Notes under the pieces: generated by a model
The model's input: the letters and a program-made list of their open reading frames with translations, nothing else
What the model was told of the DNA's origin: nothing
The model's database searches: none
Source: Ruminococcus sp.
GTDB lineage: Bacteria > Bacillota > Clostridia > Oscillospirales > Acutalibacteraceae
Direction of reading: 5' to 3'
DNA: 64,000 nt
NCBI GenBank assembly: GCA_004558485.1
Contig: SFCS01000006.1
Span: 14,041 to 78,040, forward strand
Shown here: piece by piece, positions 12,095 to 25,344 of the stretch
How positions within the stretch are numbered: the first letter of the stretch is position 1
Layout of the letters: every line of letters starts with the position of its first letter
Program-made: the position numbers and the translations under genes

Positions 12095-13023
12095 CGATGG
12101 AAACGGTCGGACGCTTTGCCCCGACGCCGTCGGGCAGGCTGCATCTCGGCAATGTGCTGTGCGCGCTGCTTTCGTGGCTTTCCGCGAAAAAGCAGGGCGG
12201 GCGTGTGCTGCTGCGCGTCGAGGATCTCGACACCGCCCGCTGCGGCGGCGAGACGCTCACCCCGCTGCTTTTGGACGATCTTGCCTTTTTGGGGCTGCGC
12301 TTTGACGGCGGCTATGAAAAGGAAAACTATCAGAGCCGCCGCACGGCGGTGTATGAAAGCTATTTTGAAAAGCTGCACGCGGCGGGGCTTTTGTATCCTT
12401 GCTATTGCTCCCGCGCACAGCTGCACGCGGCGAGAGCGCCCCATGCCGCCGACGGACAGGCGGTGTATGACGGGCATTGCCGCCGCTATCTGCACGGCGA
12501 GGCGCCGCCTGCGGGGAAAGCGCCCGCCTGGCGGCTGACCGTGCCGGAGGAAACGGTGCGTTTCACCGACGGGCTGCAGGGGGACTATGCGGAAAACCTA
12601 AAGACCGCCTGCGGCGATTTTTTGGTGCGGCGGGCGGACGGCGTGTTTGCCTATCAGCTTGCGGTGGTGGTGGATGACGCGCTCACGGGCGTGAACGAGG
12701 TGGTGCGCGGCAGAGATCTTTTGTCCTCCACGCCGCGGCAGCTCTATCTCTATCGTCTGTTTGGGTTCACGCCGCCGCGGTTTTATCACATTCCGCTGCT
12801 GCTCGACGCGCACGGCAACAGACTTTCGAAGCGCGACGGTGCGCTCGACATGGGTGCGCTGCGGGAGCGCTTTTCCTCGCCGGAGCCGCTCATCGGGCTG
12901 TTGGCGCTGACGCTGGGACTTGTCGATCACTATACCCCGCTGACGGCAGAGGCGCTTTTGCCGCGCTTTGACTGGTCGCGCATCCCGAAAACCGATCTGC
13001 GTCTTGCAGATGTCAAGTGGTAA
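12091..13023 (+). CDS. gluQ: tRNA glutamyl-Q(34) synthetase (truncated GluRS paralogue)
   Basis: Class I aaRS catalytic core (RFAPTPSGRLHLGN … LSKR) at about 310 aa with no anticodon-binding domain. Confidence 0.7.
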   Translation: MTMETVGRFAPTPSGRLHLGNVLCALLSWLSAKKQGGRVLLRVEDLDTARCGGETLTPLLLDDLAFLGLRFDGGYEKENYQSRRTAVYESYFEKLHAAGLLYPCYCSRAQLHAARAPHAADGQAVYDGHCRRYLHGEAPPAGKAPAWRLTVPEETVRFTDGLQGDYAENLKTACGDFLVRRADGVFAYQLAVVVDDALTGVNEVVRGRDLLSSTPRQLYLYRLFGFTPPRFYHIPLLLDAHGNRLSKRDGALDMGALRERFSSPEPLIGLLALTLGLVDHYTPLTAEALLPRFDWSRIPKTDLRLADVKW

Positions 13024-13204
13024 TACATAGGGTCAAAACGCCACGCGAAAGCCTTCGCGCGGCGTTTTTCCGTATTTTACCATACCCCTGCCCGCATTTT
13101 ACAAGGATTTACCGCGCTTTACCGCCGCGGGGAGCCGCAGCCGGCTGCCCTTTTGGAGCTTGCGGAGGACGCATTGGCGGCACAGTACGGCGGGTGAAGG
13201 TCGC

Positions 13205-13252
13205 CCGAAAAAAATCCCTGCACGGCATTGCCGTGCAGGGATAAATTTTTGA
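13205..13252. terminator. bidirectional terminator between gluQ and hydA
   Basis: Perfect hairpin TCCCTGCACGGCATTGCCGTGCAGGGA flanked by A-tract and T-tract. Confidence 0.6.
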
Positions 13253-13265
13253 ACGGTTTTTTTGC

Positions 13266-15008
13266 TTAACGGAACTTCTTGCGGGCGGTGTAGTGCGTAT
13301 GCAGCACTTCGTGCGCCTTGTGGCTGCCGAAGCTCCCAAAGTAATCCTTGTAGATCTCGACGACCATCGGGTTCTGATGCGACTTGCGCAGCGGCATGTC
13401 GCGATCCATGTCATACAGCACCTTGGCACGCTTGGCGCGGTAGTCCTCGAAGTTGCGCACCACGGCGGGCACGATCGGCTGACCGCCGCCGTTGATGCAG
13501 CCGCCGGGGCAGCACATGATCTCAACGAAGGTCCACGGCGCCGTGCCGTCCTTGATCATGCTCATCACATGGTTGGCAGCCGTCAGACCGCTGGCGACCG
13601 CGACTTTGACCTCAAGGCCCGCGATGTTGTAGGTCGCTTCCTTGAGACCCTCCATGCCGCGCACCTCGGTGAAGTCCACAGAGCCGTTGTCCTTGCCGGT
13701 GAGCACGTCGTTTGCCGTGCGTAGCGCCGCCTCCATCACGCCGCCGGTCGCGCCGAAAATGACGGCAGCGCCGGTGTCCGCACCGAGCGGCATATCAAAC
13801 TCTTCATCCGGCAGTGCGGTGAAGTTCAGACCTGCGCGGCGGATCATGCGGGCAAGCTCACGGGTGGTGATGGAAATGTCTACATCCGGCATGCCGGCTG
13901 CGTCCTCATCTTCACGGGTGATCTCGAATTTCTTTGCGGTGCAGGGCATGACCGAAACCGACACGATGTTACGCGGGTCGATGCCGTTTTTCTCGGCATA
14001 ATAGGTTTTCAGAATAGCACCGAACATCTGCTGCGGGGATTTGCAGGTGGAAAGATTGGCGAGCTGATCGGGATAATACAGCTCCGCAAACTTCACCCAG
14101 CCGGGCGAGCAGGAAGTGATCATCGGCAGCACGCCGCCGTTCTTCACGCGGTGGACAAGCTCGGTCGCCTCCTCGACGATCGTCATGTCCGCACCGAAAT
14201 CGGTGTCAAACACCTTGTCAAAGCCCAGTCTGCGCAGCGCGGCAACCATCTTGCCTTCGCAGGGCGTGCCGATCGGCAGCCCGAATTCCTCGCCGATCGC
14301 CGCACGGACGGCGGGAGCGGTCTGCACGAGAACGATCTTGTCCGGATCGGACAGCGCCTCGAACACCTCGGCGGTGTTGTCCTTTTCGCGCAGCGCACCG
14401 GTCGGGCAGACATTGATGCACTGACCGCAGGAGACACAGGGCACATCGCCCAGCGGCTTTTCAAACGCACACGCGATGTGGGTGTCGATGCCGCGGTCGT
14501 TCGCGCCGATGACCGACACGAACTGCTGCTGACAGGCAGCGACGCAGCGGCGGCACAGGATGCACTTGTTGTTGTCGCGGATCATGTGCGGAGAGGACTC
14601 GTCGAGCGCATATTCCGGATGGAAGCCGTCATATTTGCCGTTGTCCTCCACACCGTAGTCGAGACACAGCTTCTGCAGCTCGCAGTTGGTGGAGCGCACG
14701 CAGGAAAGGCACTTTTTCTCATGTGTCGAGAGAATGAGCTCCAGCGTCGTCTTGCGGGCGGCGCGCACCTTGTCGGTGTTGGTCTGAATTTCCATGCCCT
14801 CGGCAACCGGATAGACACAGGCGGTTACAAGGCCGCGCGCACCGGTCGCTTCGACCACGCAGATACGGCAGGCGCCGATCTCGTTCATATCCTTCAAATA
14901 GCACAGCGTGGGGATCTCCACACCGGCAGCGTGAGCCGCTTCCAGAATGGTGGAGCCCTTCGGCACACTGACGGCAATGCCGTTCACTTTTACATTAACC
15001 ATATCCAT
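13266..15008 (-). CDS. hydA: [FeFe] hydrogenase catalytic subunit HydA (bifurcating HydABC type)
   Basis: N-terminal 2Fe-2S plus 4Fe-4S ferredoxin domains. H-cluster motifs TSCSPGW, MPCTAKK and ExMCCPGGCxxGGGQP present. Start at ATG 15008 after AGGAG. Confidence 0.85.
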   Translation of the reverse strand: MDMVNVKVNGIAVSVPKGSTILEAAHAAGVEIPTLCYLKDMNEIGACRICVVEATGARGLVTACVYPVAEGMEIQTNTDKVRAARKTTLELILSTHEKKCLSCVRSTNCELQKLCLDYGVEDNGKYDGFHPEYALDESSPHMIRDNNKCILCRRCVAACQQQFVSVIGANDRGIDTHIACAFEKPLGDVPCVSCGQCINVCPTGALREKDNTAEVFEALSDPDKIVLVQTAPAVRAAIGEEFGLPIGTPCEGKMVAALRRLGFDKVFDTDFGADMTIVEEATELVHRVKNGGVLPMITSCSPGWVKFAELYYPDQLANLSTCKSPQQMFGAILKTYYAEKNGIDPRNIVSVSVMPCTAKKFEITREDEDAAGMPDVDISITTRELARMIRRAGLNFTALPDEEFDMPLGADTGAAVIFGATGGVMEAALRTANDVLTGKDNGSVDFTEVRGMEGLKEATYNIAGLEVKVAVASGLTAANHVMSMIKDGTAPWTFVEIMCCPGGCINGGGQPIVPAVVRNFEDYRAKRAKVLYDMDRDMPLRKSHQNPMVVEIYKDYFGSFGSHKAHEVLHTHYTARKKFR

Positions 15009-15025
15009 GACAGCACACTCCTTTC

Positions 15026-16822
15026 TTAACCTTTTTTGATCGCACCGAAGTTGCAGTTCGCCAAGCAGGCACCGCACTTGATGCATTTATCCTGATGGAT
15101 GACATGCGGCTGCTTGACAGCGCCGGAGATCGCACCCACCGGGCAGTTACGGGCACACTTGGTGCAGCCCTTACATTTCTCTGCGTCAATGGTGAATTGC
15201 AGCAGATCCTTGCAGACGCCGGCGGGACATTTTTTGTCCACCACATGCGCAATGTACTCGTCGCGGAAGAATTTCAGCGTGGACAGCACGGGGTTGGGCG
15301 CCGTCTGGCCGAGACCGCACAGCGAGTTGTTTTTGATGTAATAGCACAGCTCCTCCAGCTCGTCGATGTCCTTGAGCGTGCCGTTGCCCTTGGTGATCTT
15401 GTCGAGCTTTTCAAGCAGACGCTTTGTGCCGACGCGGCAGGGCGTACATTTGCCGCAGGATTCGTCAACGGTGAATTCAAGGAAGAATTTTGCCATGTCG
15501 ACCATACAGGTGTCCTCGTCCATGACGATAAGGCCGCCCGAGCCCATCATGCAGCCGATGGCGATGAGGTTGTCATAGTCCACGGGCGTGTCGATGAGGG
15601 AAGCGGGGATACAGCCGCCGGACGGGCCGCCGGTCTGTGCCGCCTTGAACTTCTTGCCGTTCGGGATGCCGCCGCCGATGTCCTCGATGATTTCGCGCAG
15701 CGTCGTGCCCATCGGGATCTCCACAAGGCCGGTGTGCTTGATTTTGCCGCCGAGGGCAAAGACCTTGGTGCCCTTGGATTTCTCCGTGCCCATGGATGCG
15801 AACCACTCGGCGCCGCGCAGAATGATCTGCGGCACATTGGCGAAGGTCTCAACATTATTTTCAACGGTCGGGGACTGATACAGACCCTTCACCGCCGGAT
15901 ACGGCGGACGCGGGCGCGGCTCGCCGCGGTTGCCCTCGATGGAGGTCATGAGCGCGGTCTCCTCGCCGCACACGAACGCGCCGGCGCCGAGACGGATATG
16001 CAGGTCGAAGTCGAAGCCGGAATTGAAGATGTTTTTGCCGAGCAGGCCGTATTCGCGCGCCTGCTCAATGGCAATCTGCAGACGGGCAACGGCGATCGGA
16101 TACTCCGCACGGACATAAACATAGCCCTCGGTCGCGCCGATGGCATAGCCCGCGATCGCCATCGCCTCGATGACGGTGTGCGGATCGCCTTCCAGGACGG
16201 AACGGTCCATGAACGCGCCGGGGTCGCCCTCGTCGGCGTTGCAGACGACATACTTCTGCGGCGCTTTGTTCGGCGCGGTCAGCGCCCATTTTCTGCCGGT
16301 CGGGAAGCCGCCGCCGCCTCTGCCGCGCAGACCGGAGTCGGTGATCACCTTAATGACCTCCTCCGGTGTCATCTCGGTCAGCACCTTGCCCAGAGCGGCA
16401 TAGCCGTCCATGGCGATATATTCGTCGATGTTTTCGGGGTTGATGACGCCGCAGTTGCGCAGCACGACGCGGTTCTGCGTCTTGTAGAACGCGGTGTCGT
16501 TGAGGGAGACATTGCCCTCGACCGGTTCGTCCGAGCCGGTGTCGTTGTAGACAAGGCGCTCGACGATCCTGCCCTTGAGCAGATGCTCGGACACGATCTC
16601 CGGCACATCGTTTGCCGTCACGCGGCTGTAGAAGGTGCCGTCGGGATGGATGATGACGACCGGACCGAGCGCGCAGAGACCGAAGCAGCCGGTCTGCACG
16701 ATTTTGATCTCTTCGGAAAGACCGTTTTTCTCGATGGCGTCCCTGAACGCCTCCTGGATTGCTTTACTGCCCGAGGAGGTACAGCCGGTACCGCCGCAGA
16801 TCAGCACATGAGTACGAATCAT
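15026..16822 (-). CDS. hydB: NADH-binding flavoprotein subunit HydB (NuoF-like, 598 aa)
   Basis: NuoF-like FMN/NADH-binding domain, SLBB domain and C-terminal 2x[4Fe-4S] motifs. Confidence 0.85.
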   Translation of the reverse strand: MIRTHVLICGGTGCTSSGSKAIQEAFRDAIEKNGLSEEIKIVQTGCFGLCALGPVVIIHPDGTFYSRVTANDVPEIVSEHLLKGRIVERLVYNDTGSDEPVEGNVSLNDTAFYKTQNRVVLRNCGVINPENIDEYIAMDGYAALGKVLTEMTPEEVIKVITDSGLRGRGGGGFPTGRKWALTAPNKAPQKYVVCNADEGDPGAFMDRSVLEGDPHTVIEAMAIAGYAIGATEGYVYVRAEYPIAVARLQIAIEQAREYGLLGKNIFNSGFDFDLHIRLGAGAFVCGEETALMTSIEGNRGEPRPRPPYPAVKGLYQSPTVENNVETFANVPQIILRGAEWFASMGTEKSKGTKVFALGGKIKHTGLVEIPMGTTLREIIEDIGGGIPNGKKFKAAQTGGPSGGCIPASLIDTPVDYDNLIAIGCMMGSGGLIVMDEDTCMVDMAKFFLEFTVDESCGKCTPCRVGTKRLLEKLDKITKGNGTLKDIDELEELCYYIKNNSLCGLGQTAPNPVLSTLKFFRDEYIAHVVDKKCPAGVCKDLLQFTIDAEKCKGCTKCARNCPVGAISGAVKQPHVIHQDKCIKCGACLANCNFGAIKKG

Positions 16823-16839
16823 AGTGTTTACCTCCTCTT

Positions 16840-17211
16840 TTATGCCTGCCCGTTACCGATCGTATAGTCAACGACCGGCTTGCCGCCTTTTAAGTGTTCC
16901 TCAATGACGCGCGCGACCTTGTCGGCGGTCATCTTGACATAGGTCACCTTGTCCTTGCCCGCCTCAAATACCTCCACGATCGGCTCATACTGGCAAAGAC
17001 CGATGCAGCCGGTCTGCGTGACCGTGATGCTGCCGGCAAGACCCGCCGCATTCACGCCCTCGACAAACGCGTTCAGCACCGGACGCGCGCCGGCGGCAAT
17101 GCCGCAGGTCGCCATGCCGACCACCACGCGCTTTTCACCGGAATCGCTGCGCAGCGCGACCTTGTCATGCATCTTATCGCGAATTGCCTGAAGTTCTGCT
17201 AAGGTTTTCAT
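16840..17211 (-). CDS. thioredoxin-like [2Fe-2S] ferredoxin (HndB-like)
   Basis: 123-aa protein with Cys pattern (ATCGIAAG … TGCIGLC) typical of the small HndB/NuoE-like ferredoxin in hyd operons. Confidence 0.65.
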   Translation of the reverse strand: MKTLAELQAIRDKMHDKVALRSDSGEKRVVVGMATCGIAAGARPVLNAFVEGVNAAGLAGSITVTQTGCIGLCQYEPIVEVFEAGKDKVTYVKMTADKVARVIEEHLKGGKPVVDYTIGNGQA

Positions 17212-17235
17212 AGGAATTCTTCCCTTCGTAAGAAT

Positions 17236-17790
17236 TTACTGATTTATAGACTGGTATTGCTCACGCAAATAGCCCTCAATCCATTTGAGTACCTCATAGG
17301 TGTCGAGCGGCACATCCCCCAGCACCTCCCGCAGCTGCCGCGTGTCCAGCGTGACAGTGCCGGCGTCGGTGCGATGGGAAAAGGCAAGCTCTTCTTGCGG
17401 ATGCCCCTGTATCAGGGTCAAAAGCGTCGCGGTCACATCGCCCAGAGGCATACAGTCGATGTGATCGGTGTGAAAGGTCGCGCGCACGGTCGTGCCGTGA
17501 CCGTCGGGACATTGCGCCGCCGTGCGGGAAGTGACGGTGAGCGTTCCGCCCGTCTGCTCCGCCTCCAGCTTCAGGAGCGGCAGCCCCAGCCCCACCCTGC
17601 GGGTGGTGCGGGTGGTATAAAACGGGTCGGTCACCCGACGGACGGTCTCGGCGTCCATGCCGCAGCCGTCGTCCGTAATTTCGATCGTCAGCACATTGCC
17701 CGCCTGCGTCAGCGACACGGTGATGAGCGTTGCGCCCGCCTTCACGGAATTTTCCGCAATGTCGAGAATGTTGAGCGAAAGCTCCTTCAT
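17236..17790 (-). CDS. histidine-kinase-like ATPase domain protein (HATPase_c only)
   Basis: Begins MKELSLNILDIAENS and contains a GxGxG ATP lid (DDGCGMD … GLGLPLL). Start ATG 17790 after GGGAGGGAG; the track ORF extension to 18057 is Arg-rich junk. Confidence 0.65.
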   Translation of the reverse strand: MKELSLNILDIAENSVKAGATLITVSLTQAGNVLTIEITDDGCGMDAETVRRVTDPFYTTRTTRRVGLGLPLLKLEAEQTGGTLTVTSRTAAQCPDGHGTTVRATFHTDHIDCMPLGDVTATLLTLIQGHPQEELAFSHRTDAGTVTLDTRQLREVLGDVPLDTYEVLKWIEGYLREQYQSINQ

Positions 17791-18506
17791 CGGTCTCCCT
17801 CCCGCAAGCGTTCGATGAGCCTTTTTGCCGGATCGCCGTCGGCAAGCTCCAAAGTGTTTGCCTTGTCGCGGATGTCCCACAGATAGTGCGCATCCGAGCT
17901 GATGATCACCGTCTGCGGCAGCGTCATTTTCGCTCGCAGCGGCGGCTCCTTTTCGCCGTCGTGCAGCTCGACGCAGGAAAACCGCGGCGTGTCCGGCAGC
18001 ATGCCGAGCACGGCAAGGATGCCGTTTGCCTCGCGGTCGATGTGCGCAGGATAGCACACACCGTGATATTTTGCCGCGAGCGGCACGCTCTCGTCGAGCG
18101 AAACGCCCGTCGCGTTGGAAAGCAGGTGCTCCTCAACGCCGAGAACATTGTCCGCAGCATCCGTGAGCAGCTGCTCCCCGAAGATGTCGGGGCGGTTTTT
18201 GATCCGCACCCGCCGCGTGTCGATCTCCTCGTCGAATGCCAAAGCGTCCGAGAGCGTCGGGAACAGGCAGACCATGTGGATATCCTCCGCCGTGGTCAGC
18301 TCCATCCCCGCAACGGGGATGATGCCCATTTCCGCTGCCGCCTCAAAAAACGCAGGGCAGTTGCGACAGGTGTTGTGATCCGTCAATGCCATGAGCTGCA
18401 GCCCCGCCAGCTTGCCGACGCCCGCCAGGTTGCGCGGCGTGTTGTCGTTGTCGGCGCAGGGGGACAGACAGGAATGGAGGTGCAGATCGTAATAAAAGCG
18501 GCTCAT
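17787..18506 (-). CDS. PHP domain metal-dependent phosphoesterase
   Basis: N-terminal YYDLHLHSCLSPCA and HNT motifs of the PHP superfamily. Confidence 0.65.
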   Translation of the reverse strand: MSRFYYDLHLHSCLSPCADNDNTPRNLAGVGKLAGLQLMALTDHNTCRNCPAFFEAAAEMGIIPVAGMELTTAEDIHMVCLFPTLSDALAFDEEIDTRRVRIKNRPDIFGEQLLTDAADNVLGVEEHLLSNATGVSLDESVPLAAKYHGVCYPAHIDREANGILAVLGMLPDTPRFSCVELHDGEKEPPLRAKMTLPQTVIISSDAHYLWDIRDKANTLELADGDPAKRLIERLREGDR

Positions 18507-18832
18507 GAGAGCGCCGCGTGCAGCCGCAGAGCGGTCTCATAGGCGCCATAGGTGCTCAAAAGCACATTGACGCCCTTTTCGGCGGCAAGAGCCGCCATGC
18601 CCTCGTCCGGCTGTACACCCTCCGCCAGCACCACACAGGCGGCGTCACACAGCGCCGCCACCGCCGGCACATTGCGGTTGGACATAATGGTGATCCAGAC
18701 ATTGCCCTCGCGGGCACGCCCCATCACCCAACTCAAAAGATCGCCGATATACACGCCGTCGGCAACGCGCTCCGGCTGCGGCAGCGCCGCAGCGGAAAAT
18801 CCCGAAAGCGCCGCAAGCTCACGCACCGTCAT
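18503..18832 (-). CDS. DRTGG domain protein
   Basis: About 110-aa protein with a DRTGG-like core. Start at the second ATG (18832), 10 nt after GAGGAGG. Confidence 0.5.
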   Translation of the reverse strand: MTVRELAALSGFSAAALPQPERVADGVYIGDLLSWVMGRAREGNVWITIMSNRNVPAVAALCDAACVVLAEGVQPDEGMAALAAEKGVNVLLSTYGAYETALRLHAALS

Positions 18833-20090
18833 GGGCATCCTCCTCTTTTTCGCGCCGCGACAGCACACAGCCGTCCGCTGACGCTCTGCCGCACACCACA
18901 TCCTCCGCAAAGGCGCGGCAGGTGGGCGCGCCGCAGGCACCGCAGTCGATGCCGGGCAGGCTGCCCCTGAGCGCCTGAATGTCGGCTAACATCCGCATGG
19001 ACTGTGCCATGCTGCTTGAAAGCTGTGAGATCGGCTGATATTCCGGCATCTCCTCAAAGAAATAGGCGGCGGGGATATACTGCTCATCGGGAGACAGCAG
19101 GTTCTGCGACACCGGCAGATACCGCCGCAGCGTTTGCATGCGCGCTTTGGCGATGAATGGATCCTGAATATTCAGCACACCGCCGACGCAGCCGCCCGTG
19201 CAGGCGTTGAGCTCGACGAACTCCAGCGGCGGGATGTTGCCGTTTTCGATCTGATCGAGCACATGGATGATGTGCTCGATGCCGTCCGCCGCCAGATAGC
19301 GGTCGTTGAACAGCGCGGTCGCCTCACCGCCGGTCGTCGCCCAGCCGATGCCGATCATGCCCGACTCGGAAAGCGAGGCTTCCGGCGCGGTGTGGGACAT
19401 GGCGCCGATCAGCTCAAAATAGATGTCGCTGACCGAAACGACCGCATCCACCTGACTTTTGTAGCCCGCAAAGCCGTTTTTCACATAGCTCACTTTCGCG
19501 GGACACGGCGAAATGAAGCAAACGCCGATGTCGTCGGGGGAAAGCTCCGGGTGCTGCCTTTGCGCCCTCTCGCGGGCAAGCCTTGCCGCGATCTCCATCG
19601 GGGGCAGCATCTGCAAAAGGTTTTCCTTCAATGACGGAAACCGCAGAGCGATCAGCCGCACCACAACGGGGCACGCCGAGCTGATGATCGGTTTTTTGAT
19701 CCCTTCGGTGTTCAGATACAGGCGGGTGTATGCGGACACCAGCTCCGCCGCCTGCGACACCTCATACACATCGTCGAAACCGATGCGCAAAAGACCGCCG
19801 AGCACACAATCCACATCATCGAGATTGTCAAACTGCCCATACAAAGCGGGCGCGGGAAGAGCGATCTTCCATTTGAAGCGCTGCATATCCGACAGCTTGT
19901 TGCACACCGCACGCTTTGCCTTTTGCTGACAGGTGCGGATGCATTCACCGCAATCGATGCAGCGGTTCTCCTTGATGGTTGCGTGGCCGTCCCGCACACG
20001 GATCGCCTCGGTCGGGCAATGCCGGAGGCAGGTGGTGCAGCCGGTGCACTTCTCGGCGTCTAAGAACACGGAATGTGCGTATGTATGCAT
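18819..20090 (-). CDS. HydS-like sensory [FeFe] hydrogenase homologue (2x[4Fe-4S] + divergent H-cluster domain + C-terminal 4-Cys motif)
   Basis: N-terminal CxxCxxCxxxCP pair, then degenerate H-cluster motifs (SSACPVVV, ISPCPAKV, ELNACTGGCVGG). C-terminal CGACGAPTCRAFAEDVVCGRASADGC. No PAS domain. Confidence 0.7.
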   Translation of the reverse strand: MHTYAHSVFLDAEKCTGCTTCLRHCPTEAIRVRDGHATIKENRCIDCGECIRTCQQKAKRAVCNKLSDMQRFKWKIALPAPALYGQFDNLDDVDCVLGGLLRIGFDDVYEVSQAAELVSAYTRLYLNTEGIKKPIISSACPVVVRLIALRFPSLKENLLQMLPPMEIAARLARERAQRQHPELSPDDIGVCFISPCPAKVSYVKNGFAGYKSQVDAVVSVSDIYFELIGAMSHTAPEASLSESGMIGIGWATTGGEATALFNDRYLAADGIEHIIHVLDQIENGNIPPLEFVELNACTGGCVGGVLNIQDPFIAKARMQTLRRYLPVSQNLLSPDEQYIPAAYFFEEMPEYQPISQLSSSMAQSMRMLADIQALRGSLPGIDCGACGAPTCRAFAEDVVCGRASADGCVLSRREKEEDAHDGA

Positions 20091-20123
20091 AAACAGCCCT
20101 CCGTCCGTGCGAAGCGGCACTCC

Positions 20124-20555
20124 TTATGCCGTGGGAATGTCCACGCGCATCAGGATGTCGGTGCCTTCTCCGACACGGGATCGGATCTCCATATGATCCG
20201 TATAGCGTTTCATATTGGGTAACCCCATACCGGCGCCGAAGCCCAAAGAACGGACGACGTCCGGCGCGGTGGAAAAGCCTGCCTGCATGGCCTGCTCAAT
20301 GTCTGCAATGCCGGGACCGTGATCCGAAAGCGCGATCTCGATCTTGTCTTCATCCACCCGCACCTCGGCGATGCCGCCGCCCGCGTGGATGACCATGTTG
20401 ATCTCGCCCTCGTACATGGCGATGGAAACGCGCCGGATAATCTCCGGCGGCAGTCCCAGCTGGCGCAGATTTTTCTTGACCTGCACCGACGCCTGCCCCG
20501 CGGAGGTGAAATCCTCTCCGCCCACATCAAAACGAAAAGTAAGCGTCTCAGCCAT
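20124..20555 (-). CDS. RsbW/SpoIIAB-like anti-sigma-type Ser protein kinase (HATPase_c_2)
   Basis: About 143 aa. Motifs EGEINMVIHA and DHGPGI…GFGAGMGL match the GHKL kinase fold of partner-switching kinases. Confidence 0.6.
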   Translation of the reverse strand: MAETLTFRFDVGGEDFTSAGQASVQVKKNLRQLGLPPEIIRRVSIAMYEGEINMVIHAGGGIAEVRVDEDKIEIALSDHGPGIADIEQAMQAGFSTAPDVVRSLGFGAGMGLPNMKRYTDHMEIRSRVGEGTDILMRVDIPTA

Positions 20556-20556
20556 C

Positions 20557-20913
20557 TTATCGCCTCGCAGTCTTGTTGCCGACAAGACCGTTGCTGTAGA
20601 GAATGCCGCACGCCTCATACATCCGCTTGTCGGTCGCCATGAGCACGATGCCGGCGTCCTGCGCCAGACGGATCATTTCCTCCGTCGGGCGTTTCTCGCG
20701 CACGAAAACGATGCAGATCATGTCCATCATTTCCGCGGTGCGGATGACCTGTGCGTTGACAAGGCCGGTGAGCAGCACCGCCTGATCCTTCACATATGCC
20801 AACACATCGCTCATCATGTCGCTGCCGCAGGCGGAATAGACATGGTCGCCAAGGCGCTCCTCGCAGACAAGAACATCGGCTTGCAAAAGCTCTTTAATGG
20901 TACAGATCTTCAT
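20557..20913 (-). CDS. DRTGG domain protein (second copy)
   Basis: 118-aa DRTGG-like protein (…VLLTGLVNAQVIRTAEMMD…) immediately upstream of the kinase gene. Confidence 0.5.
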   Translation of the reverse strand: MKICTIKELLQADVLVCEERLGDHVYSACGSDMMSDVLAYVKDQAVLLTGLVNAQVIRTAEMMDMICIVFVREKRPTEEMIRLAQDAGIVLMATDKRMYEACGILYSNGLVGNKTARR

Positions 20914-20934
20914 AGTCGGCCCTCGTATGGCGCT

Positions 20935-21432
20935 TTATGCGCCGTATTTTTTCAGAATGTCCGGCACATCGTCTGCGGTCAGTCTGCCGAACACCTCATC
21001 GTTGATGGTGAGCACCGGCGCAAGACCGCAAGCACCGATGCAGCGGCAGGCGGTGAGGGAAAATCTGCCGTCGGGGGTACATTCGTCCGCGCCGATGCCG
21101 AGAATTTCCTGAATTTTGTTGAACACATCGCCGGAGCCCTTGACATAGCACGCTGTGCCCAGGCAGACCGAGATGTTGTAGTTGCCCTTCGGGGACAGCG
21201 CAAACTGCGCATAGAAGGTTGCTACTCCGTAGACCTTTTCGAGCGGCACGCCCATGCCGTCCGCGATCATCTGCTGTACCTCGATGGGGAGATACCCGTA
21301 GATGCCCTGCGCCTCCTGCATGACGCCCATCAGCCGACTTTTGTCGTGCTTGTTGGCATCAATGACCTTCTTTAGTGCCTCTGCCTGCGCAGCGGTACCC
21401 TTGAAGGGCAGATTGCTGATTTTTTTCTGCAT
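20935..21432 (-). CDS. hydC: NuoE-like [2Fe-2S] subunit HydC
   Basis: NuoE family signature (CLGTACYVKG … CRCIGACGLAP). Start ATG 21432 after AGGAGG. Confidence 0.8.
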   Translation of the reverse strand: MQKKISNLPFKGTAAQAEALKKVIDANKHDKSRLMGVMQEAQGIYGYLPIEVQQMIADGMGVPLEKVYGVATFYAQFALSPKGNYNISVCLGTACYVKGSGDVFNKIQEILGIGADECTPDGRFSLTACRCIGACGLAPVLTINDEVFGRLTADDVPDILKKYGA

Positions 21433-21520
21433 ATTGCCTTTCCTCCTTGAAATGTATTGTATCTTCCGCATAACGGGTATGCGAAAAATACATACCGTTC
21501 TCATTATAACAAAGAGTTTT
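21433..21520 (-). promoter_or_regulatory. promoter and leader of the hyd operon: extended -10 TGTTATAAT and leader hairpin CGCATACCCGTTATGCG
   Basis: Minus-strand TGTTATAAT (plus 21504-21513) about 70 nt upstream of hydC. A short inverted repeat in the leader may be an operator. Confidence 0.35.
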
Positions 21521-21563
21521 CAAAAATACCAGTGTTAAATTGCATTTTTTATATAATTATGGA

Positions 21564-21593
21564 GAAAAAAAGCAGTGCCGTCGGCACTGCTTT
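21564..21593 (-). terminator. smpB terminator
   Basis: Hairpin AGCAGTGCCGTCGGCACTGCT followed by a T-tract on the minus strand. Confidence 0.6.
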
Positions 21594-21610
21594 CCCATTT
21601 GGCACAGTTT

Positions 21611-22075
21611 TTATGCGTTTCGTTCCTTAAGCGCGCGCTCTGCCTCCCGTTTCATGTCCCGACGGGCGGCATCCTCGCGCTTGTCATAGAGCTTTTTGCC
21701 GCGGCAAAGCCCGACCTGCACCTTCATGAGCGAGCCCTTGCGATAAAGCGACAGCGGAATGAGCGTCAGCCCCTTCTGCTTTGACAGCCCGTAAAGCCGC
21801 AGAATTTCCCGTTTGTGCAGCAACAGCCGCCGCACGCGCAGCGGGTCGCGGTTAAAAATGTTGCCGTGGTCATAGGGAGAGATGTGCATGCCGTTTATGA
21901 ACATTTCCCCTTCGACGACGCTGCACCAGGCGTCCTTCAGGTTGACGCCGCCCGCGCGGATGGCTTTCACCTCTGTGCCGCACAGCTCAATGCCCGCCTC
22001 GATGCTTTCCTCGACGAAATATTCATGATACGCCTTTTTGTTGGCGGCGATCGTTTGTGTCGCTTGTTGTTTCAT
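21611..22075 (-). CDS. smpB: SsrA-binding protein
   Basis: SmpB family (…NKKAYHEYF…GTEVKA…LLLHKRE…). Start ATG 22075. The upstream 147 residues of the track ORF are antisense junk. Confidence 0.85.
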   Translation of the reverse strand: MKQQATQTIAANKKAYHEYFVEESIEAGIELCGTEVKAIRAGGVNLKDAWCSVVEGEMFINGMHISPYDHGNIFNRDPLRVRRLLLHKREILRLYGLSKQKGLTLIPLSLYRKGSLMKVQVGLCRGKKLYDKREDAARRDMKREAERALKERNA

Positions 22076-22086
22076 GGCGGTTCTCC

Positions 22087-22686
22087 TTACAGCTCCGAGC
22101 GCCCCTCCAGCGAGCGGCGCAGCGTGACCTCGTCCGCATATTCCAAATCGCCGCCCACGGGGATGCCGTAGGCAAGGCGGGTGACCTTGATGGGAAAGGG
22201 TTTCAGCAGCCGCGCGATATACATGGCGGTCGCCTCCCCCTCGACGGTGGGATTGGTCGCCATCACGACCTCCTTGACCGCCTCGTCGGTCAGGCGGGTG
22301 AGAAGGGGGCGGATGCGGATGTCGTCGGGGCCGACCCCGTCCATGGGCGAGATCGTGCCGTGCAGCACGTGGTACAGCCCGCGGTATTCCCTTGTGCGCT
22401 CCAGCGCTGCGACATCCTGCGGATCCTCCACCACACAGATGACCGAGCGATCGCGGTCTGCCGCTGCGCAAACGGGGCAAAGCGCTTTGTCGGTCAGGTT
22501 GCAGCAAACGCTGCATTCGTGGATGTTTTCGCGCGCCTCGCGGATGGCGGAGACAAATGCCGCCGCCTTTTCCTCCGGCTGACGCAGCAGAAAAAAGGCA
22601 AGCCTCCCGGCGGATTTGTGTCCGATGCCGGGCAGCGTTTCGAGCTGCTCCACCAGCCGTTCAAGCGGCGCTACCGTGTATCCCAT
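22087..22686 (-). CDS. recR: recombination protein RecR
   Basis: HhH motif LPGIGHKSAGRLAFFLL, C4 zinc finger CSVCCNLTDKALCPVC and Toprim domain. Confidence 0.9.
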   Translation of the reverse strand: MGYTVAPLERLVEQLETLPGIGHKSAGRLAFFLLRQPEEKAAAFVSAIREARENIHECSVCCNLTDKALCPVCAAADRDRSVICVVEDPQDVAALERTREYRGLYHVLHGTISPMDGVGPDDIRIRPLLTRLTDEAVKEVVMATNPTVEGEATAMYIARLLKPFPIKVTRLAYGIPVGGDLEYADEVTLRRSLEGRSEL

Positions 22687-22694
22687 ACAGCACC

Positions 22695-23042
22695 TCAGAA
22701 CAGCCCCGGCACATTCAAGCCGCCCGCGATGCGGGACATCTGCTGTTCGGCGTCCTCGCTTGCCTTGCGGCTGGCCTCATTGACGGCGGCGATGACCAGA
22801 TCGGCGAGCATTTCGGCATCGTCGGGATCGATGACCTCCGGCTCGATTTTGAGCGCGGTGATCTCGTGCTTGCCGTTCACGGTCGCTTCGACCGCGCCGC
22901 CGCCCGCCGTAGCGGTATAGACGGAGGCTTGCAGCTCCTCCTGCTTTGCAGCAGCCTCCTCCTGCATCTTCTGTGCCTGGCGGATCATGCTTTGCAGGTT
23001 GCCCGGACCGCCGCCCATTCCCTGCGGTAATCTTGCTTTCAT
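22695..23042 (-). CDS. ybaB: YbaB/EbfC nucleoid-associated protein
   Basis: 115-aa protein with the characteristic NLQSMIRQAQKMQE N-terminus. Conserved dnaX-ybaB-recR order. Confidence 0.85.
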   Translation of the reverse strand: MKARLPQGMGGGPGNLQSMIRQAQKMQEEAAAKQEELQASVYTATAGGGAVEATVNGKHEITALKIEPEVIDPDDAEMLADLVIAAVNEASRKASEDAEQQMSRIAGGLNVPGLF

Positions 23043-23058
23043 AGTGTATATCCCCTTT

Positions 23059-24693
23059 TTAGGTTTGTATATCCACGCCGCGTTCCCGATTTTGACGGAT
23101 GAAGGCGGTCAGCGGATCGTTCGGCGTGTCCGCCGACGGTTTTTTCTTGATGCCGATGCGATAGGTGTTCCCCGTAACTTGCTTGATGGTGTTCACCAGA
23201 ATTTGCTTGTTGCCGTCACGGGTGACGAGCGCACGGAAGGTGTCATTGTCGGTGCAGACAAGCACGATGTCGCCGCGCAGCAGCGCCGTCGAGCCGACAA
23301 GCACGCCGCAGAGCGGGGGACATGCCGTTTCGAGCGCCTCCACCACCTCGCCCCAGGAAGAAAACGGCACTTCCGCATTTTCCGCCGCCGGTGCTACCGG
23401 TGCTGCCGGGGCTGCCGGTGCTGCCGGGGCTGCCGGTGCGGGTGCGGGAGCAGGTTCCTGCGCGGGCGCAGATTCTTGCGTCGGTGCGGGCTCTTGCATC
23501 GGTGCGGGCTCTTGCGTCGGTGCCGGAGCAGACGCCTGCGTGGGAGCTGACATCGGTCGGTTGTTTTCCAGTGCCGCTACACGGCGGGTGAGGGCGGCAA
23601 GGTCGTCGGACAATTCCGGACGGCACAGCCGCAAGACCGCCATCTCCATCTCCACGCGGCGGGACACGCCTCCGCGCAGACGGTCGAGCGTCTCCTGCAG
23701 CACCGCCAGGTGATGCAGCACCGTCGCCATATCGGTGGCGGCAGCGGCAGCTCTCAGCTGCTCCAGCTCCTCGGCAGAGACCACGACAAGCGCCGTCGGA
23801 TCCTTGACGGTCTTGACGATCATGATGTCGCGGCAATGCTCCACCCATTCGGCGCACAGCCGTTCCATGTCCTTTGACCCGCGATAGAGCGTGTCGATGA
23901 CGGCAAGCGCCTTTGCGGTGTCGCCGGCGGCGACTGCCGCAGACAATTCGAAAATGTGCGCCCTCCCCGCCAGTCCCGCGGCGGCGGTCACGACCTCGGC
24001 GGTCACCTCGCGGGAATGGGATACGCACTGATCGAGCAGGGAAAGCGCGTCCCGCATCGCGCCGTCGGACAGCCGCGCCAAAAGCAGCGCCGCGTCATCG
24101 GTGACGGAAAAGCCCTCCTTGTCCGCCACAAAGCGGATGCGCGCCGCGATGTCGGCGGGGGTGATGCGGGTGAAATCAAACCGCTGACAGCGGGACAAAA
24201 TCGTTGCGGGCAGCTTGTGCACCTCGGTGGTCGCCAGGACAAAAATGACATGCGCGGGCGGCTCTTCCAAGGTTTTGAGCAGCGCGTTGAACGCACCCGC
24301 AGACAGCATGTGCACCTCGTCGATGATATACACGCGGTATTTTGCGGCGGCGGGGGTGAAGTTCACTTCCTCCCGCAGCTCGCGGATGCTGTCGACGCCG
24401 TTGTTTGACGCGGCGTCGATCTCCACCACATCCAAAATCGAGCCGTCGTCGATGCCGCGGCAGATCTCACACGCGTTGCAGGGATCGCCGTCCACGGGGG
24501 ACAGACAGTTGACTGCCTTGGCAAGAATTTTGGCACAGGTGGTCTTTCCCGTACCGCGACAGCCGGTGAACAGATAGGCATGCGCCGGTGTGCCGTTTTT
24601 GATCTCGTTGCGCAGCGCGGCAGTCACCGTTTCCTGTCCGCAGACATCGGAAAAGGTCTGCGGGCGATATTTGCGATACAGCACCTGATACAA
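23059..24693 (-). CDS. dnaX: DNA polymerase III subunits gamma/tau
   Basis: LYRKYRPQTF, Walker A GTGKTT and zinc module CxxC…CxxC. Start TTG 24693, 8 nt after AAAGGAG. Internal Pro/Ala-rich tandem-repeat linker. Confidence 0.85.
   Translation of the reverse strand: MYQVLYRKYRPQTFSDVCGQETVTAALRNEIKNGTPAHAYLFTGCRGTGKTTCAKILAKAVNCLSPVDGDPCNACEICRGIDDGSILDVVEIDAASNNGVDSIRELREEVNFTPAAAKYRVYIIDEVHMLSAGAFNALLKTLEEPPAHVIFVLATTEVHKLPATILSRCQRFDFTRITPADIAARIRFVADKEGFSVTDDAALLLARLSDGAMRDALSLLDQCVSHSREVTAEVVTAAAGLAGRAHIFELSAAVAAGDTAKALAVIDTLYRGSKDMERLCAEWVEHCRDIMIVKTVKDPTALVVVSAEELEQLRAAAAATDMATVLHHLAVLQETLDRLRGGVSRRVEMEMAVLRLCRPELSDDLAALTRRVAALENNRPMSAPTQASAPAPTQEPAPMQEPAPTQESAPAQEPAPAPAPAAPAAPAAPAAPVAPAAENAEVPFSSWGEVVEALETACPPLCGVLVGSTALLRGDIVLVCTDNDTFRALVTRDGNKQILVNTIKQVTGNTYRIGIKKKPSADTPNDPLTAFIRQNRERGVDIQT
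23381..23545 (-). repeat. in-frame tandem nucleotide repeats encoding a PAP/QEPAPT low-complexity linker inside dnaX
   Basis: Repeats (ccggtgctgccggggctg)x2 and (cttgcRtcggtgcgggct)x3 encode APTQEPAPMQEPAPTQESAPAQEP and (AAP)n. Confidence 0.7.
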
Positions 24694-24704
24694 GGCTGTC
24701 ACTC

Positions 24705-24849
24705 CTTTGCAGAAAAATACCGTAGGCACTCCGGCATACGGACGGACAGGCGGACTGCGGCGCACGGAGACAGCTGCTTAATGCTGCTCGGTTCCCCGCC
24801 TGACATGGTTCACAGCGCACCGTCGCGCAGGACCCATCCGTCCGTATGC
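24705..24849 (-). ncRNA. ffs: signal recognition particle RNA (small 4.5S-like form) with its own promoter
   Basis: Minus-strand promoter TTGACT-17-TATAAT. Long terminal helix (ccggcatacggacgg / ccgtccgtatgccgg). Domain IV motif AUGUCAGGCGGGGAACCGAGCAGC matches GUCAGG-NCCGGAAGGAAGCAGC. Ends in UAUUUUU just before the dnaX RBS. Confidence 0.75.
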
Positions 24850-24909
24850 CGGAATGTATACGGCATCTCTTATTATATGTGTACGGCGGCGAAAAGTCAA
24901 GAGCGCCGC

Positions 24910-24940
24910 GAAAAAATAAGGCTGCGCAAAGCGCAGCCTT
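24910..24940 (-). terminator. rpsT terminator
   Basis: Hairpin AAGGCTGCGCAAAGCGCAGCCTT plus T-tract on the minus strand. Confidence 0.65.
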
Positions 24941-24951
24941 ACAGATTGTCC

Positions 24952-25203
24952 TCACGCATTCGCTTTTTTAGCGAGGGCGGACTTTTTCCTTGCAGCCGTA
25001 TTCTTGTGCAGGAGACCCTTTGCAGCAGCCTGATCGATCTTCTTGACGGCGGCTTTCAAGGCTTCTTCCTTGTTCTCACCGGCAGCGATGGCGGCGTTCG
25101 CGTTCTTGATCTCGGTTTTCAGAGCGGAGCGGGCAGCTTTGTTGCGGGCGGCCTTCACCGCGTTGACCTTCACGCGCTTCTTGGCGGATTTAATATTGGG
25201 CAT
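24952..25203 (-). CDS. rpsT: 30S ribosomal protein S20
   Basis: MPNIKSAKKRVKV… S20 family. ATG 25203, 7 nt after AGGAGG. Confidence 0.9.
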   Translation of the reverse strand: MPNIKSAKKRVKVNAVKAARNKAARSALKTEIKNANAAIAAGENKEEALKAAVKKIDQAAAKGLLHKNTAARKKSALAKKANA

Positions 25204-25344
25204 GGTCACACCTCCTAAACAGCAAATTCAAATCACGCACACAATATAGTAGCACCCTTTTTCAAAAAAAGCAACTGTTTTTTTCGGAATATCCCGATTT
25301 TTTTCACGGATACTAGTGAAAACGAGAAAAAAAGAGGGAGAACT

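Follow-up and report, generated by a model that had tools for sequence, protein, structure and literature searches.

What are six tightly packed genes doing in the middle of the genes of an [FeFe] hydrogenase? The question is raised by a locus in a 64,000-nucleotide stretch of DNA from Ruminococcus sp., a gut bacterium of the Clostridia (assembly GCA_004558485.1, contig SFCS01000006.1, positions 14,041 to 78,040 of the forward strand; this whole stretch is called the window below), where ten minus-strand genes run from hydC to hydA (21432-13266), as seen from the open reading frame listing, the Pfam and NCBIfam scans and the direct reading of the junctions. A six-gene cassette (17236-20913, minus strand) sits between hydC and the genes hndB-hydB-hydA, and it encodes a hydrogenase homologue (HydS), a SpoIIAB/RsbW-like protein of the GHKL family, two DRTGG-like proteins (DRTGG1 and DRTGG2), a PHP-family phosphoesterase and a stand-alone ATPase, designated here HATP2. 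The answer favored here, at a probability of roughly 0.55 for the reading as a whole, is that the cassette is a portable H2/redox-sensing unit built around a HydS of group D (M2e), and that the ten genes form one operon for an Acetobacterium-type electron-bifurcating HydABC(D) hydrogenase.

The hydrogenase operon and its six-gene cassette

The genes are given in the order of their transcription, with the lengths of the products and the principal domain matches.

20935-21432, minus strand: hydC, NuoE-like [2Fe-2S] subunit, 165 residues (PF01257, 165.4 bits; NuoE/HoxE NCBIfam matches)
20557-20913, minus strand: DRTGG-like protein 1, 118 residues (Pfam DRTGG 23.3 bits, cut-off 25.2)
20124-20555, minus strand: SpoIIAB/RsbW-like GHKL protein, 143 residues (HATPase_c_2 47.3 bits, above the cut-off), starting 1 nucleotide past the DRTGG1 stop
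18819-20090, minus strand: HydS, HydS-like hydrogenase, 423 residues (two Fer4 domains; Fe_hyd_lg_C 101 bits; PF04060 FeS 48.3 bits)
18503-18832, minus strand: DRTGG-like protein 2, 109 residues (DRTGG PF07085 31.0 bits, cut-off 25.2), overlapping the HydS stop by 14 nucleotides
17787-18506, minus strand: PHP-family metal-dependent phosphoesterase, 239 residues (PF02811 37.5 bits, cut-off 26.4), with an ATGA overlap at both ends
17236-17790, minus strand: HATP2, stand-alone HATPase_c-only GHKL ATPase, 184 residues (HATPase_c 62.4 bits)
16840-17211, minus strand: hndB-like gene, thioredoxin-fold ferredoxin, 123 residues (PF01257, 26.5 bits)
15026-16822, minus strand: hydB, NuoF-like subunit binding flavin mononucleotide and NADH, 598 residues (Complex1_51K 154.6 bits; NADH_4Fe-4S 118.4 bits; Fer4 domains)
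13266-15008, minus strand: hydA, catalytic [FeFe] hydrogenase subunit, 580 residues (Fe_hyd_lg_C 324 bits; NF040763 887.7 bits, cut-off 765)

An earlier note on this DNA, made from the letters alone, had described six tightly packed genes between hydC and hndB-hydB-hydA and their translational coupling, including an ATGA overlap at 17787-17790, and both are borne out by the map and the junctions. The spacings from hydC onward are +21, +1, +33, -14, -4, -4, +24 and +17 nucleotides, with ATGA overlaps at 18506-18503 (DRTGG2/PHP) and 17790-17787 (PHP/HATP2), and the gene boundaries are the same on human-gut contigs of 93% identity. The six domain assignments of that note all hold in the domain searches, that of DRTGG1, which scores below the Pfam cut-off, being secured by profile comparison as described below; it was also right on the absence of PAS, STAS, PP2C (including SpoIIE) and Rex, which none of the ten proteins of the operon matches at E ≤ 0.01.

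The presence of HydA, a NuoF-like HydB and a NuoE-like HydC in one operon is the gene content of an electron-bifurcating HydABC (group A3-type), and bifurcation is predicted on this basis. The closest solved chain to HydA is HydA1 of Acetobacterium woodii (7Q4V, E 3.4e-216). Residues 298-304 of HydA read TSCSPGW and not the textbook TSCCPGW, and the same is found in all 46 of the 46 related HydA sequences; since the solved HydA1 shares the motif, it is a trait of the clade and no defect, and the loss of an H-cluster ligand was rejected. The HndB-like protein resembles the N-terminal domains of HoxF, NfnB and HydB in the comparison with the PDB and is probably the fourth subunit, in the HydD position of the tetrameric enzymes. 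Only C36, C69 and C73 are conserved among its cysteines, and an invariant Met33 stands where the N-terminal domain of HydB itself has the first Cys of CxxxxC; cluster binding is uncertain, because the solved N-terminal domains of HoxF and NfnB show the same SCGIAAG pattern. In two related loci (L086:11928-14960 and L088:4176-7202) HydB has about 1010 residues and carries a fused domain of the GltD/Pyr_redox_2 type, a sign that the regulated hydrogenase may differ there in its pyridine-nucleotide specificity.

HydS as a hydrogenase of the putative sensory group

The start of HydS is placed at the ATG at 20090, behind GGAGGG, rather than at the GTG at 20120. The protein carries two N-terminal [4Fe-4S] motifs (C15/18/21/25 and C44/47/50/54), an H-domain with the motifs SSACP, SPCPAK and ELNACTGGC and the H-cluster cysteines C140, C196, C297 and C301, and a C-terminal Cx2Cx4Cx16C motif (C383, C386, C391, C408); all of these cysteines are invariant in an alignment of 43 diverse homologues, down to 28% identity. 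In comparison with HydA of the same operon, the L1 motif is SSACP versus TSCSP, the proton-relay cysteine (C299 of CpI) being lost, and the L2 motif is SPCPAK versus MPCTAK, with Ser in place of Met353. The PAS domain gives no match in HydS at E ≤ 0.01, and the protein ends 15 residues past its last cysteine. It is encoded, moreover, in the same operon as a group A bifurcating HydABC. By these hallmarks, which typify the M2e subclass with TamHydS of Thermoanaerobacter mathranii as its example (PMC8163306), all eight sequence-level features of the group being present, HydS belongs to M2e/group D, among the [FeFe] hydrogenases classed as "putative sensory".

For TamHydS a low turnover, a Km for H2 lower than that of typical prototypical [FeFe] hydrogenases and a tolerance to carbon monoxide were reported, and a sensory role was proposed; it binds and turns over H2, its catalysis is reversible though slow, and the signal transduction was left unexplained, given the absent PAS domain (PMC8163306). 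In the follow-up of 2026 the C-terminal cluster was found not to be reduced by H2, and the question of signalling was left open (PMC13104023). That genes of group D adjoin those of protein kinases and of bifurcating HydABC was pointed out in 2012, citing Calusinska 2010 (PMC3561251), and again in 2020 (PMC8163306), with the literature covering C. thermocellum (Cthe_0335-0342), Caldicellulosiruptor and Thermoanaerobacter; the examples listed are Cthe_0335 with Cthe_0340-0342, Csac_1857, Athe_1292, Teth39_1463 and Cphy_3798 (PMC3561251). Accordingly, the earlier note went too far in describing the locus as a variant, uncharacterised circuit: loci of this kind have been recognised since 2010-2012, and this one is typical of group D, with the same gene order across related Oscillospirales.

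The partner proteins

The best match of the GHKL protein in the PDB is SpoIIAB (1TIL, E 5.5e-8). Its E/N box, DxGxG and GxGxG fall on those of SpoIIAB in the alignment, and these boxes are invariant in 79 sequences. It is best regarded as a putative Ser kinase or binding partner, and is called the kinase below in this qualified sense.

DRTGG1, despite its Pfam score, is by its profile unambiguously a paralogue of DRTGG2: the two families align with an hhalign probability of 99.4%, and the DRTGG1 profile matches PDB entry 2IOJ (E 7e-4). The invariant motifs are D32-x-M-S35-D-V-L and LTGLxNxQVxRT in DRTGG1, and D31-L-L-S34 at the start of helix 2, with TIMxN in the next loop, in DRTGG2, whose AlphaFold2 model (mean predicted local distance difference test score, pLDDT, 96.4) has the DRTGG fold. 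The D-h-h-S motif is thus invariant in both paralogues, and 2IOJ, a generic DRTGG protein, lacks it; in the model of DRTGG2 it is placed where strand 26-29 meets helix 33-39. The eponymous TGGDR loop is not kept, as TGLVNPQ (type 1) and TIMSNxN (type 2) stand where 2IOJ has TGGDRSD. The D-h-h-S motif is a plausible phospho-acceptor or contact site, nothing more, as judged from the model and the alignments.

In the PHP protein the metal-ligand set H9, H11, D43/H44, E69, H77, H155, D205 and H207 is invariant among 22 diverse members, as is the family-specific S15-P16-C17. Residues 11-19 form an invariant H-S-x-L-S-P-C with a 3-residue insertion relative to the TrpH-type PHP enzymes (HxHxxxSDG), and the invariant Cys17 stands near the metal site. 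The best solved relatives in the PDB profile search are RNase AM (7UG9, E 1.7e-9), 9ETK, 3E0F and 2YB1, and the search returns RNase AM/YciV, pAp phosphatase, TM0559, EndoQ, PolC and YcdX. A protein(-tyrosine) phosphatase of the CpsB/YwqE type was considered and finds no support in the sequence, with no CpsB or YwqE found at E ≤ 1 in that search.

HATP2 has its ATP-binding boxes and a conserved C-terminal subdomain with D112..P115-x-G117, and lacks a DHp/HisKA domain, so it is not a two-component sensor histidine kinase. Its structural model (pLDDT 91) leads us to describe it best as a minimal GHL-type ATPase. Orthologues from all the distant contexts considered in the next section align with invariant ATP-binding residues.

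Conservation, natural fusions and portability of the cassette

The comparison of gene neighbourhoods, which the earlier note had proposed as a check, was run on the best 80 of more than 600 matching stretches among the GTDB species representatives, all of them of Oscillospirales with HydS 55-76% identical to the one considered here. The order hydC-DRTGG1-kinase-HydS-DRTGG2-PHP-HATP2-hndB-hydB-hydA is kept in these loci as far as the contigs reach, with the exception of seven (L054, L065, L066, L072, L073, L078 and L081), where hydC lies between PHP and HATP2, so that HATP2 stays with hydC-hndB-hydB-hydA while the module splits. Because the same order is kept in related loci, the arrangement is not due to chance.

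The HydS family comprises 415 clusters at 50% identity (E ≤ 1e-30), and fusions were sought among the representatives of these clusters. A kinase::HydS fusion of 607 residues is found in at least 6 assemblies (the P0154 cluster), a DRTGG1::HydS fusion of 534 residues in at least 6 assemblies (P0155, P0202), and HydS::DRTGG2 fusions in at least 6 separate clusters (563, 561, 545 and 515/537 residues, and a cluster of 533 residues with 80 members). They are not frameshift artefacts, since a fusion of the same length recurs in several independent assemblies. According to profile typing, the DRTGG part fused at the N-terminus is always of type 1 and that at the C-terminus always of type 2; therefore, DRTGG2 directly follows the extra [4Fe-4S] domain, in the place where group C (M2f) has PAS. 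From these natural fusions we infer a physical sensor complex.

More distant contexts, with HydS homologues of 30-37% identity, were obtained by single look-ups and differ in the operon that the cassette accompanies.

L091 (7226-15280): DRTGG1-kinase-HydS-DRTGG2-HATP2, then rnfCDGEAB
L090 (122-9552): DRTGG1-CBS::kinase-HydS-DRTGG2-(131 residues)-PHP-NuoE-HATP2-HndB-NuoF-molybdopterin formate dehydrogenase
L089 (4737-11211): (128 residues)-HATPase-HydS::DRTGG2-PHP-HATP2, then [NiFe] hydrogenase small and large subunits
L093 (655-7629): FdhA-Nfn-like genes, then DRTGG1-kinase-HydS only, without HATP2 and PHP
L087 (5941-9955; gut isolate 'bacterium 210820-DFI.6.37', GCA_020558355.1): the complete set of seven non-HydABC genes, flanked by a V-type ATPase operon and by glycogen genes
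L086: kinase::HydS-DRTGG2-hydC-HATP2-...-HydB(GltD-fused)-HydA, without PHP
L092: full cassette

In L087 the set consists of the kinase, DRTGG2, PHP, HATP2, a DRTGG1::HydS fusion and an HndB-like gene, with no hydABC adjacent. The core of the cassette is thus DRTGG1-kinase-HydS, with DRTGG2 and HATP2 nearly constant and PHP optional, and most of the target operons include a Nuo51-type flavoprotein (HydB, NuoF or RnfC). These gene neighbourhoods suggest that one sensor type is wired to several NADH/ferredoxin enzymes, namely HydABC, Rnf, formate dehydrogenase and [NiFe] hydrogenase. That the cassette precedes other redox operons and also stands without hydABC fits a regulator better than a subunit. 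The kinase of L090 (481-1347) was observed to carry an N-terminal CBS domain, which hints at an adenine-nucleotide input to the same circuit.

In the literature searched, neither the HydS fusions nor the cassette before Rnf, formate dehydrogenase or [NiFe] operons was found described, nor were the MutL/GyrB likeness of HATP2, the nucleotide-phosphoesterase affinity of PHP and the non-STAS fold of DRTGG; the combination of DRTGG with hydrogenase likewise returned nothing related.

Proposed mechanism

In the working model, HydS would bind H2 at its complete H-cluster and report the H2 level while carrying no flux; a slow turnover, as of a sensor rather than a flux enzyme, is expected because the proton-relay cysteine is replaced (SSACP), and by extension from the biochemistry of TamHydS. 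HydS would be part of a stoichiometric complex, with the kinase and DRTGG1 at its N-terminus and DRTGG2 at the C-terminal end, adjoining the extra [4Fe-4S] domain, as the natural gene fusions and the translational coupling indicate. The further steps are hypothetical. H2-dependent changes in HydS may alter the ATP-dependent binding or the Ser-phosphorylation by the kinase, for which the best candidate acceptor would be the invariant D-h-h-S serine (Ser34/Ser35) at the start of helix 2 of the DRTGG paralogues; the PHP hydrolase may reset this state or degrade a nucleotide signal; and HATP2, always the last gene of the cassette beside its targets, may couple the signal to the downstream flavoprotein complex of the NuoF/RnfC type. 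As no DNA-binding component, sigma factor, Rex box or known RNA element is present, such a coupling is probably post-translational, and an output of this type is somewhat more likely than a transcriptional one.

A partner-switching circuit, which the earlier note had proposed, is retained as a hypothesis. The GHKL protein has intact SpoIIAB-type boxes but scores below the cut-off of the spIIAB model, and there is no STAS antagonist, no PP2C and no sequestered output such as a sigma factor or other target; with STAS and PP2C missing, the label fails two defining features. More far-reaching, and doubtful, is the idea that the DRTGG paralogues stand in for the PAS output domain of group C as well as for the STAS antagonist, that they are Ser-phosphorylated by the SpoIIAB-like kinase, and that together with the MutL-type mini-ATPase they exert a direct H2-dependent post-translational control of HydABC, [NiFe] hydrogenase, formate dehydrogenase and Rnf across anaerobic bacteria.

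Weighing of the alternative explanations

The regulatory or sensory reading, made already in the earlier note, is the best one in view of the group D membership, the conservation, the fusions and the portability, and as an H2-sensing regulatory cassette the locus is well supported by its context; the intact sites of the kinase, PHP and HATP2, in which the residues for catalysis and ATP binding are invariant, also count in its favor. However, several findings weigh against it. The kinase scores 63 bits in the spIIAB model TIGR01925, far below the equivalog cut-off of 135; HATP2 models as a MutL/GyrB/Hsp90-type (GHL) ATPase and not as a kinase; the DRTGG proteins lack the STAS fold, and therefore the analogy to SpoIIAA is by role only; PHP is closest to the nucleotide/RNA phosphoesterases of the RNase AM/pAp-phosphatase type and not to the protein phosphatases, and is missing from some cassettes (L086, L091, L093); and neither the operon nor those of the fetched loci whose neighbouring genes were called encode an output component, be it a sigma factor, a DNA- or RNA-binding protein or a phospho-target.

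Some of these points may be turned into an explanation in which the cassette senses the energy charge or the ferredoxin/NADH redox state and not H2, with HydS as a redox-poised Fe-S protein, with adenine nucleotides read by the DRTGG and GHKL proteins and, in some lineages, by CBS, and with pAp or a cyclic or linear dinucleotide turned over by PHP. Folds of the DRTGG type occur in HPr kinase and in the part of CBS-pyrophosphatase that is regulated by nucleotides, CBS is fused to the kinase in L090, PHP is closest to RNase AM and the 3',5'-bisphosphate nucleotidases, two ATP-binding GHKL proteins are present in the cassette, and the targets (HydABC, Rnf, NuoEF-Fdh and [NiFe] with NuoEF) all handle NADH and ferredoxin. 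It is nevertheless unlikely. The invariance of the four H-cluster cysteines in the 43 diverse homologues speaks for a retained H2 chemistry, H2 is bound and turned over by TamHydS with a low Km (PMC8163306), and the eponymous TGGDR loop of DRTGG is lost.

An output through HATP2 could also be understood differently, if the extra proteins served NuoF-type flavin/Fe-S complexes as factors of assembly, cofactor insertion or maintenance, or as loosely bound subunits, HATP2 being an Hsp90/MutL-like ATP-driven clamp and PHP processing a flavin or other nucleotide. The resemblance of HATP2 to the MutL/GyrB/Hsp90 ATPases, its place beside hydC-hndB-hydB-hydA in the seven split loci and inside operons of the hydCEDBA type in A. 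woodii and C. thermocellum, and the nucleotide-hydrolase likeness of PHP agree with this, while a SpoIIAB-like kinase and a low-activity sensor-type hydrogenase would be hard to explain, the trio DRTGG1-kinase-HydS occurs without HATP2 and PHP in L093, and the cassette lies away from any hydABC in L087. Purified HydABC(D) enzymes are active without the cassette proteins. If, on the other hand, HydS were itself a further catalytic hydrogenase module, supplying electrons to HydABC or drawing them off, with unrelated passengers for neighbours, the full H-cluster site, the two relay clusters and the reversible, if slow, catalysis of TamHydS would be accounted for. Against this, the proton-relay cysteine is lost (SSACP), the published rates are low (PMC8163306), and the conserved kinase and DRTGG fusions together with the association with non-hydrogenase operons misfit a flux enzyme. 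The SpoIIAB-like kinase, the sensor-type active site and the links to non-hydrogenase operons make both of these explanations the less likely ones, so that a role in assembly is quite improbable and a second catalytic module highly so.

Comparison with the known systems

The locus resembles the group D systems (TamHydS, Cthe_0335, Csac_1857, Athe_1292, Teth39_1463) in the two [4Fe-4S] motifs, the H-domain, the Cx2Cx4Cx16C motif and the absence of PAS, in the same active-site substitutions (the loss of the proton-relay cysteine and Met353 to Ser), and in the neighbouring genes, which encode a GHKL "histidine kinase-like ATPase" and a bifurcating HydABC, trimeric or tetrameric (PMC8163306, PMC3561251). 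It differs from the group D layout upstream of hydC, found in seven fetched loci, in that the cassette is inserted between hydC and hndB, and from T. mathranii, where an AraC-type regulator is a neighbour (PMC8163306), in that there is none here. No discussion of DRTGG, PHP or GHL-ATPase partners of group D was found in the papers searched.

With group C (M2f), represented by HydS of T. maritima, HydS of R. albus and HfsB in hfsABCD of T. saccharolyticum, it shares the sensor-type H-cluster site, the C-terminal extra [4Fe-4S] domain and the genetic linkage to Ser/Thr kinase genes and to the control of hydrogenase and fermentation. The HydS of R. albus is said to be paired with Rex. In group C, PAS is fused and PP2C phosphatases are present, whereas here PAS is absent, a DRTGG-like protein takes its place (as a separate gene here, fused in other lineages), and the PHP enzyme stands where group C would have PP2C. 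The deletion of hfsB shifts the fermentation products (PMC5707799).

The likeness to the SpoIIAB-SpoIIAA-SpoIIE and RsbW-RsbV-RsbU modules lies in the small GHKL protein with intact ATP-binding boxes, in a hydrolase gene within the operon, and in small alpha/beta partner proteins whose helix 2 starts at an invariant Ser, while the STAS-fold antagonist, the PP2C phosphatase and the sigma factor of those modules are missing. The use of a low-activity hydrogenase as H2 sensor with a GHKL-family kinase, which is proposed here from the genes alone, has its counterpart in HoxBC-HoxJ-HoxA of Cupriavidus necator (PMC5707799), where sensor and kinase are in physical contact and the kinase governs the hydrogenase genes. 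In contrast, the hydrogenase class there is unrelated, and HoxJ is a true histidine kinase (PAS, DHp) with a response regulator, none of which occurs here.

In A. woodii (hydC-hydE-hydD-hydB-hydA1) and in C. thermocellum (Cthe_0338-0342) hydC and the HndB-like gene have a GHKL "histidine kinase" gene between them, at the position of HATP2 in the split layout, which also matches the locus-tag spacing in C. thermocellum, with Cthe_0339 annotated as "histidine kinase". From position and gene order alone, we infer that HATP2 corresponds to Cthe_0339 and to hydE of A. woodii; unlike there, five further cassette genes stand between hydC and HATP2 here.

Boundaries of the operon and the flanking genes

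The prediction of a single ten-gene operon draws on the coupling of the genes, one promoter-like region and one strong terminator.

21456-21511, minus strand: promoter-like region upstream of hydC (direct reading and consensus scan)
13214-13242, minus strand: intrinsic terminator-like hairpin with a 13-bp stem of which 9 pairs are GC, then a T-run, 24 nucleotides past the hydA stop

Upstream of hydC an extended -10 element TGTTATAAT is found at 21511-21503, and the consensus scan gives TTCGCA-18-TACAAT at 21485-21456; the promoter-like region is preceded by the smpB stop (21611) and then by a GC hairpin with a T-run (about 21590-21565). The hairpin at 13242-13214 is the strongest terminator site in the scan, in which no comparable minus-strand terminator appeared inside the operon.

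Two forms of conventional control were considered and rejected. No Rex-box-like site with up to 3 mismatches lies near the hydC promoter, and the 6 matches in the window are what chance would give; as for a leader RNA or riboswitch, no Rfam family was found in 12800-22000, a sub-threshold CRISPR-DR match inside hydA being due to chance. Past the extended -10 and ahead of the ribosome-binding site, the probable 5' leader of hydC (21433-21500) has a perfect inverted repeat of 6 bp (CGCATA-CCCGT-TATGCG) that matches no known RNA family. On the same strand upstream of the operon lie smpB, recR, ybaB and dnaX (21565-25300), with rpsT beyond them on the opposite strand, and the synteny smpB-recR-ybaB-dnaX-rpsT is also seen in the 93%-identical gut contigs (L001-L003).

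Significance for anaerobic H2 metabolism

In fermenting and syntrophic anaerobes of the gut and of bioreactors, the partial pressure of H2 sets the split of electrons among H2, formate, ethanol and acids. What the comparison offers for the group D hydrogenases is a set of candidate partners of HydS, with the kinase and DRTGG1 at its N-terminus and DRTGG2 at the position of PAS, and a candidate phospho-serine. If the proposed circuit is true, it would represent a new signalling architecture, and may provide a handle for engineering the H2 and ethanol yields in such organisms as C. thermocellum.

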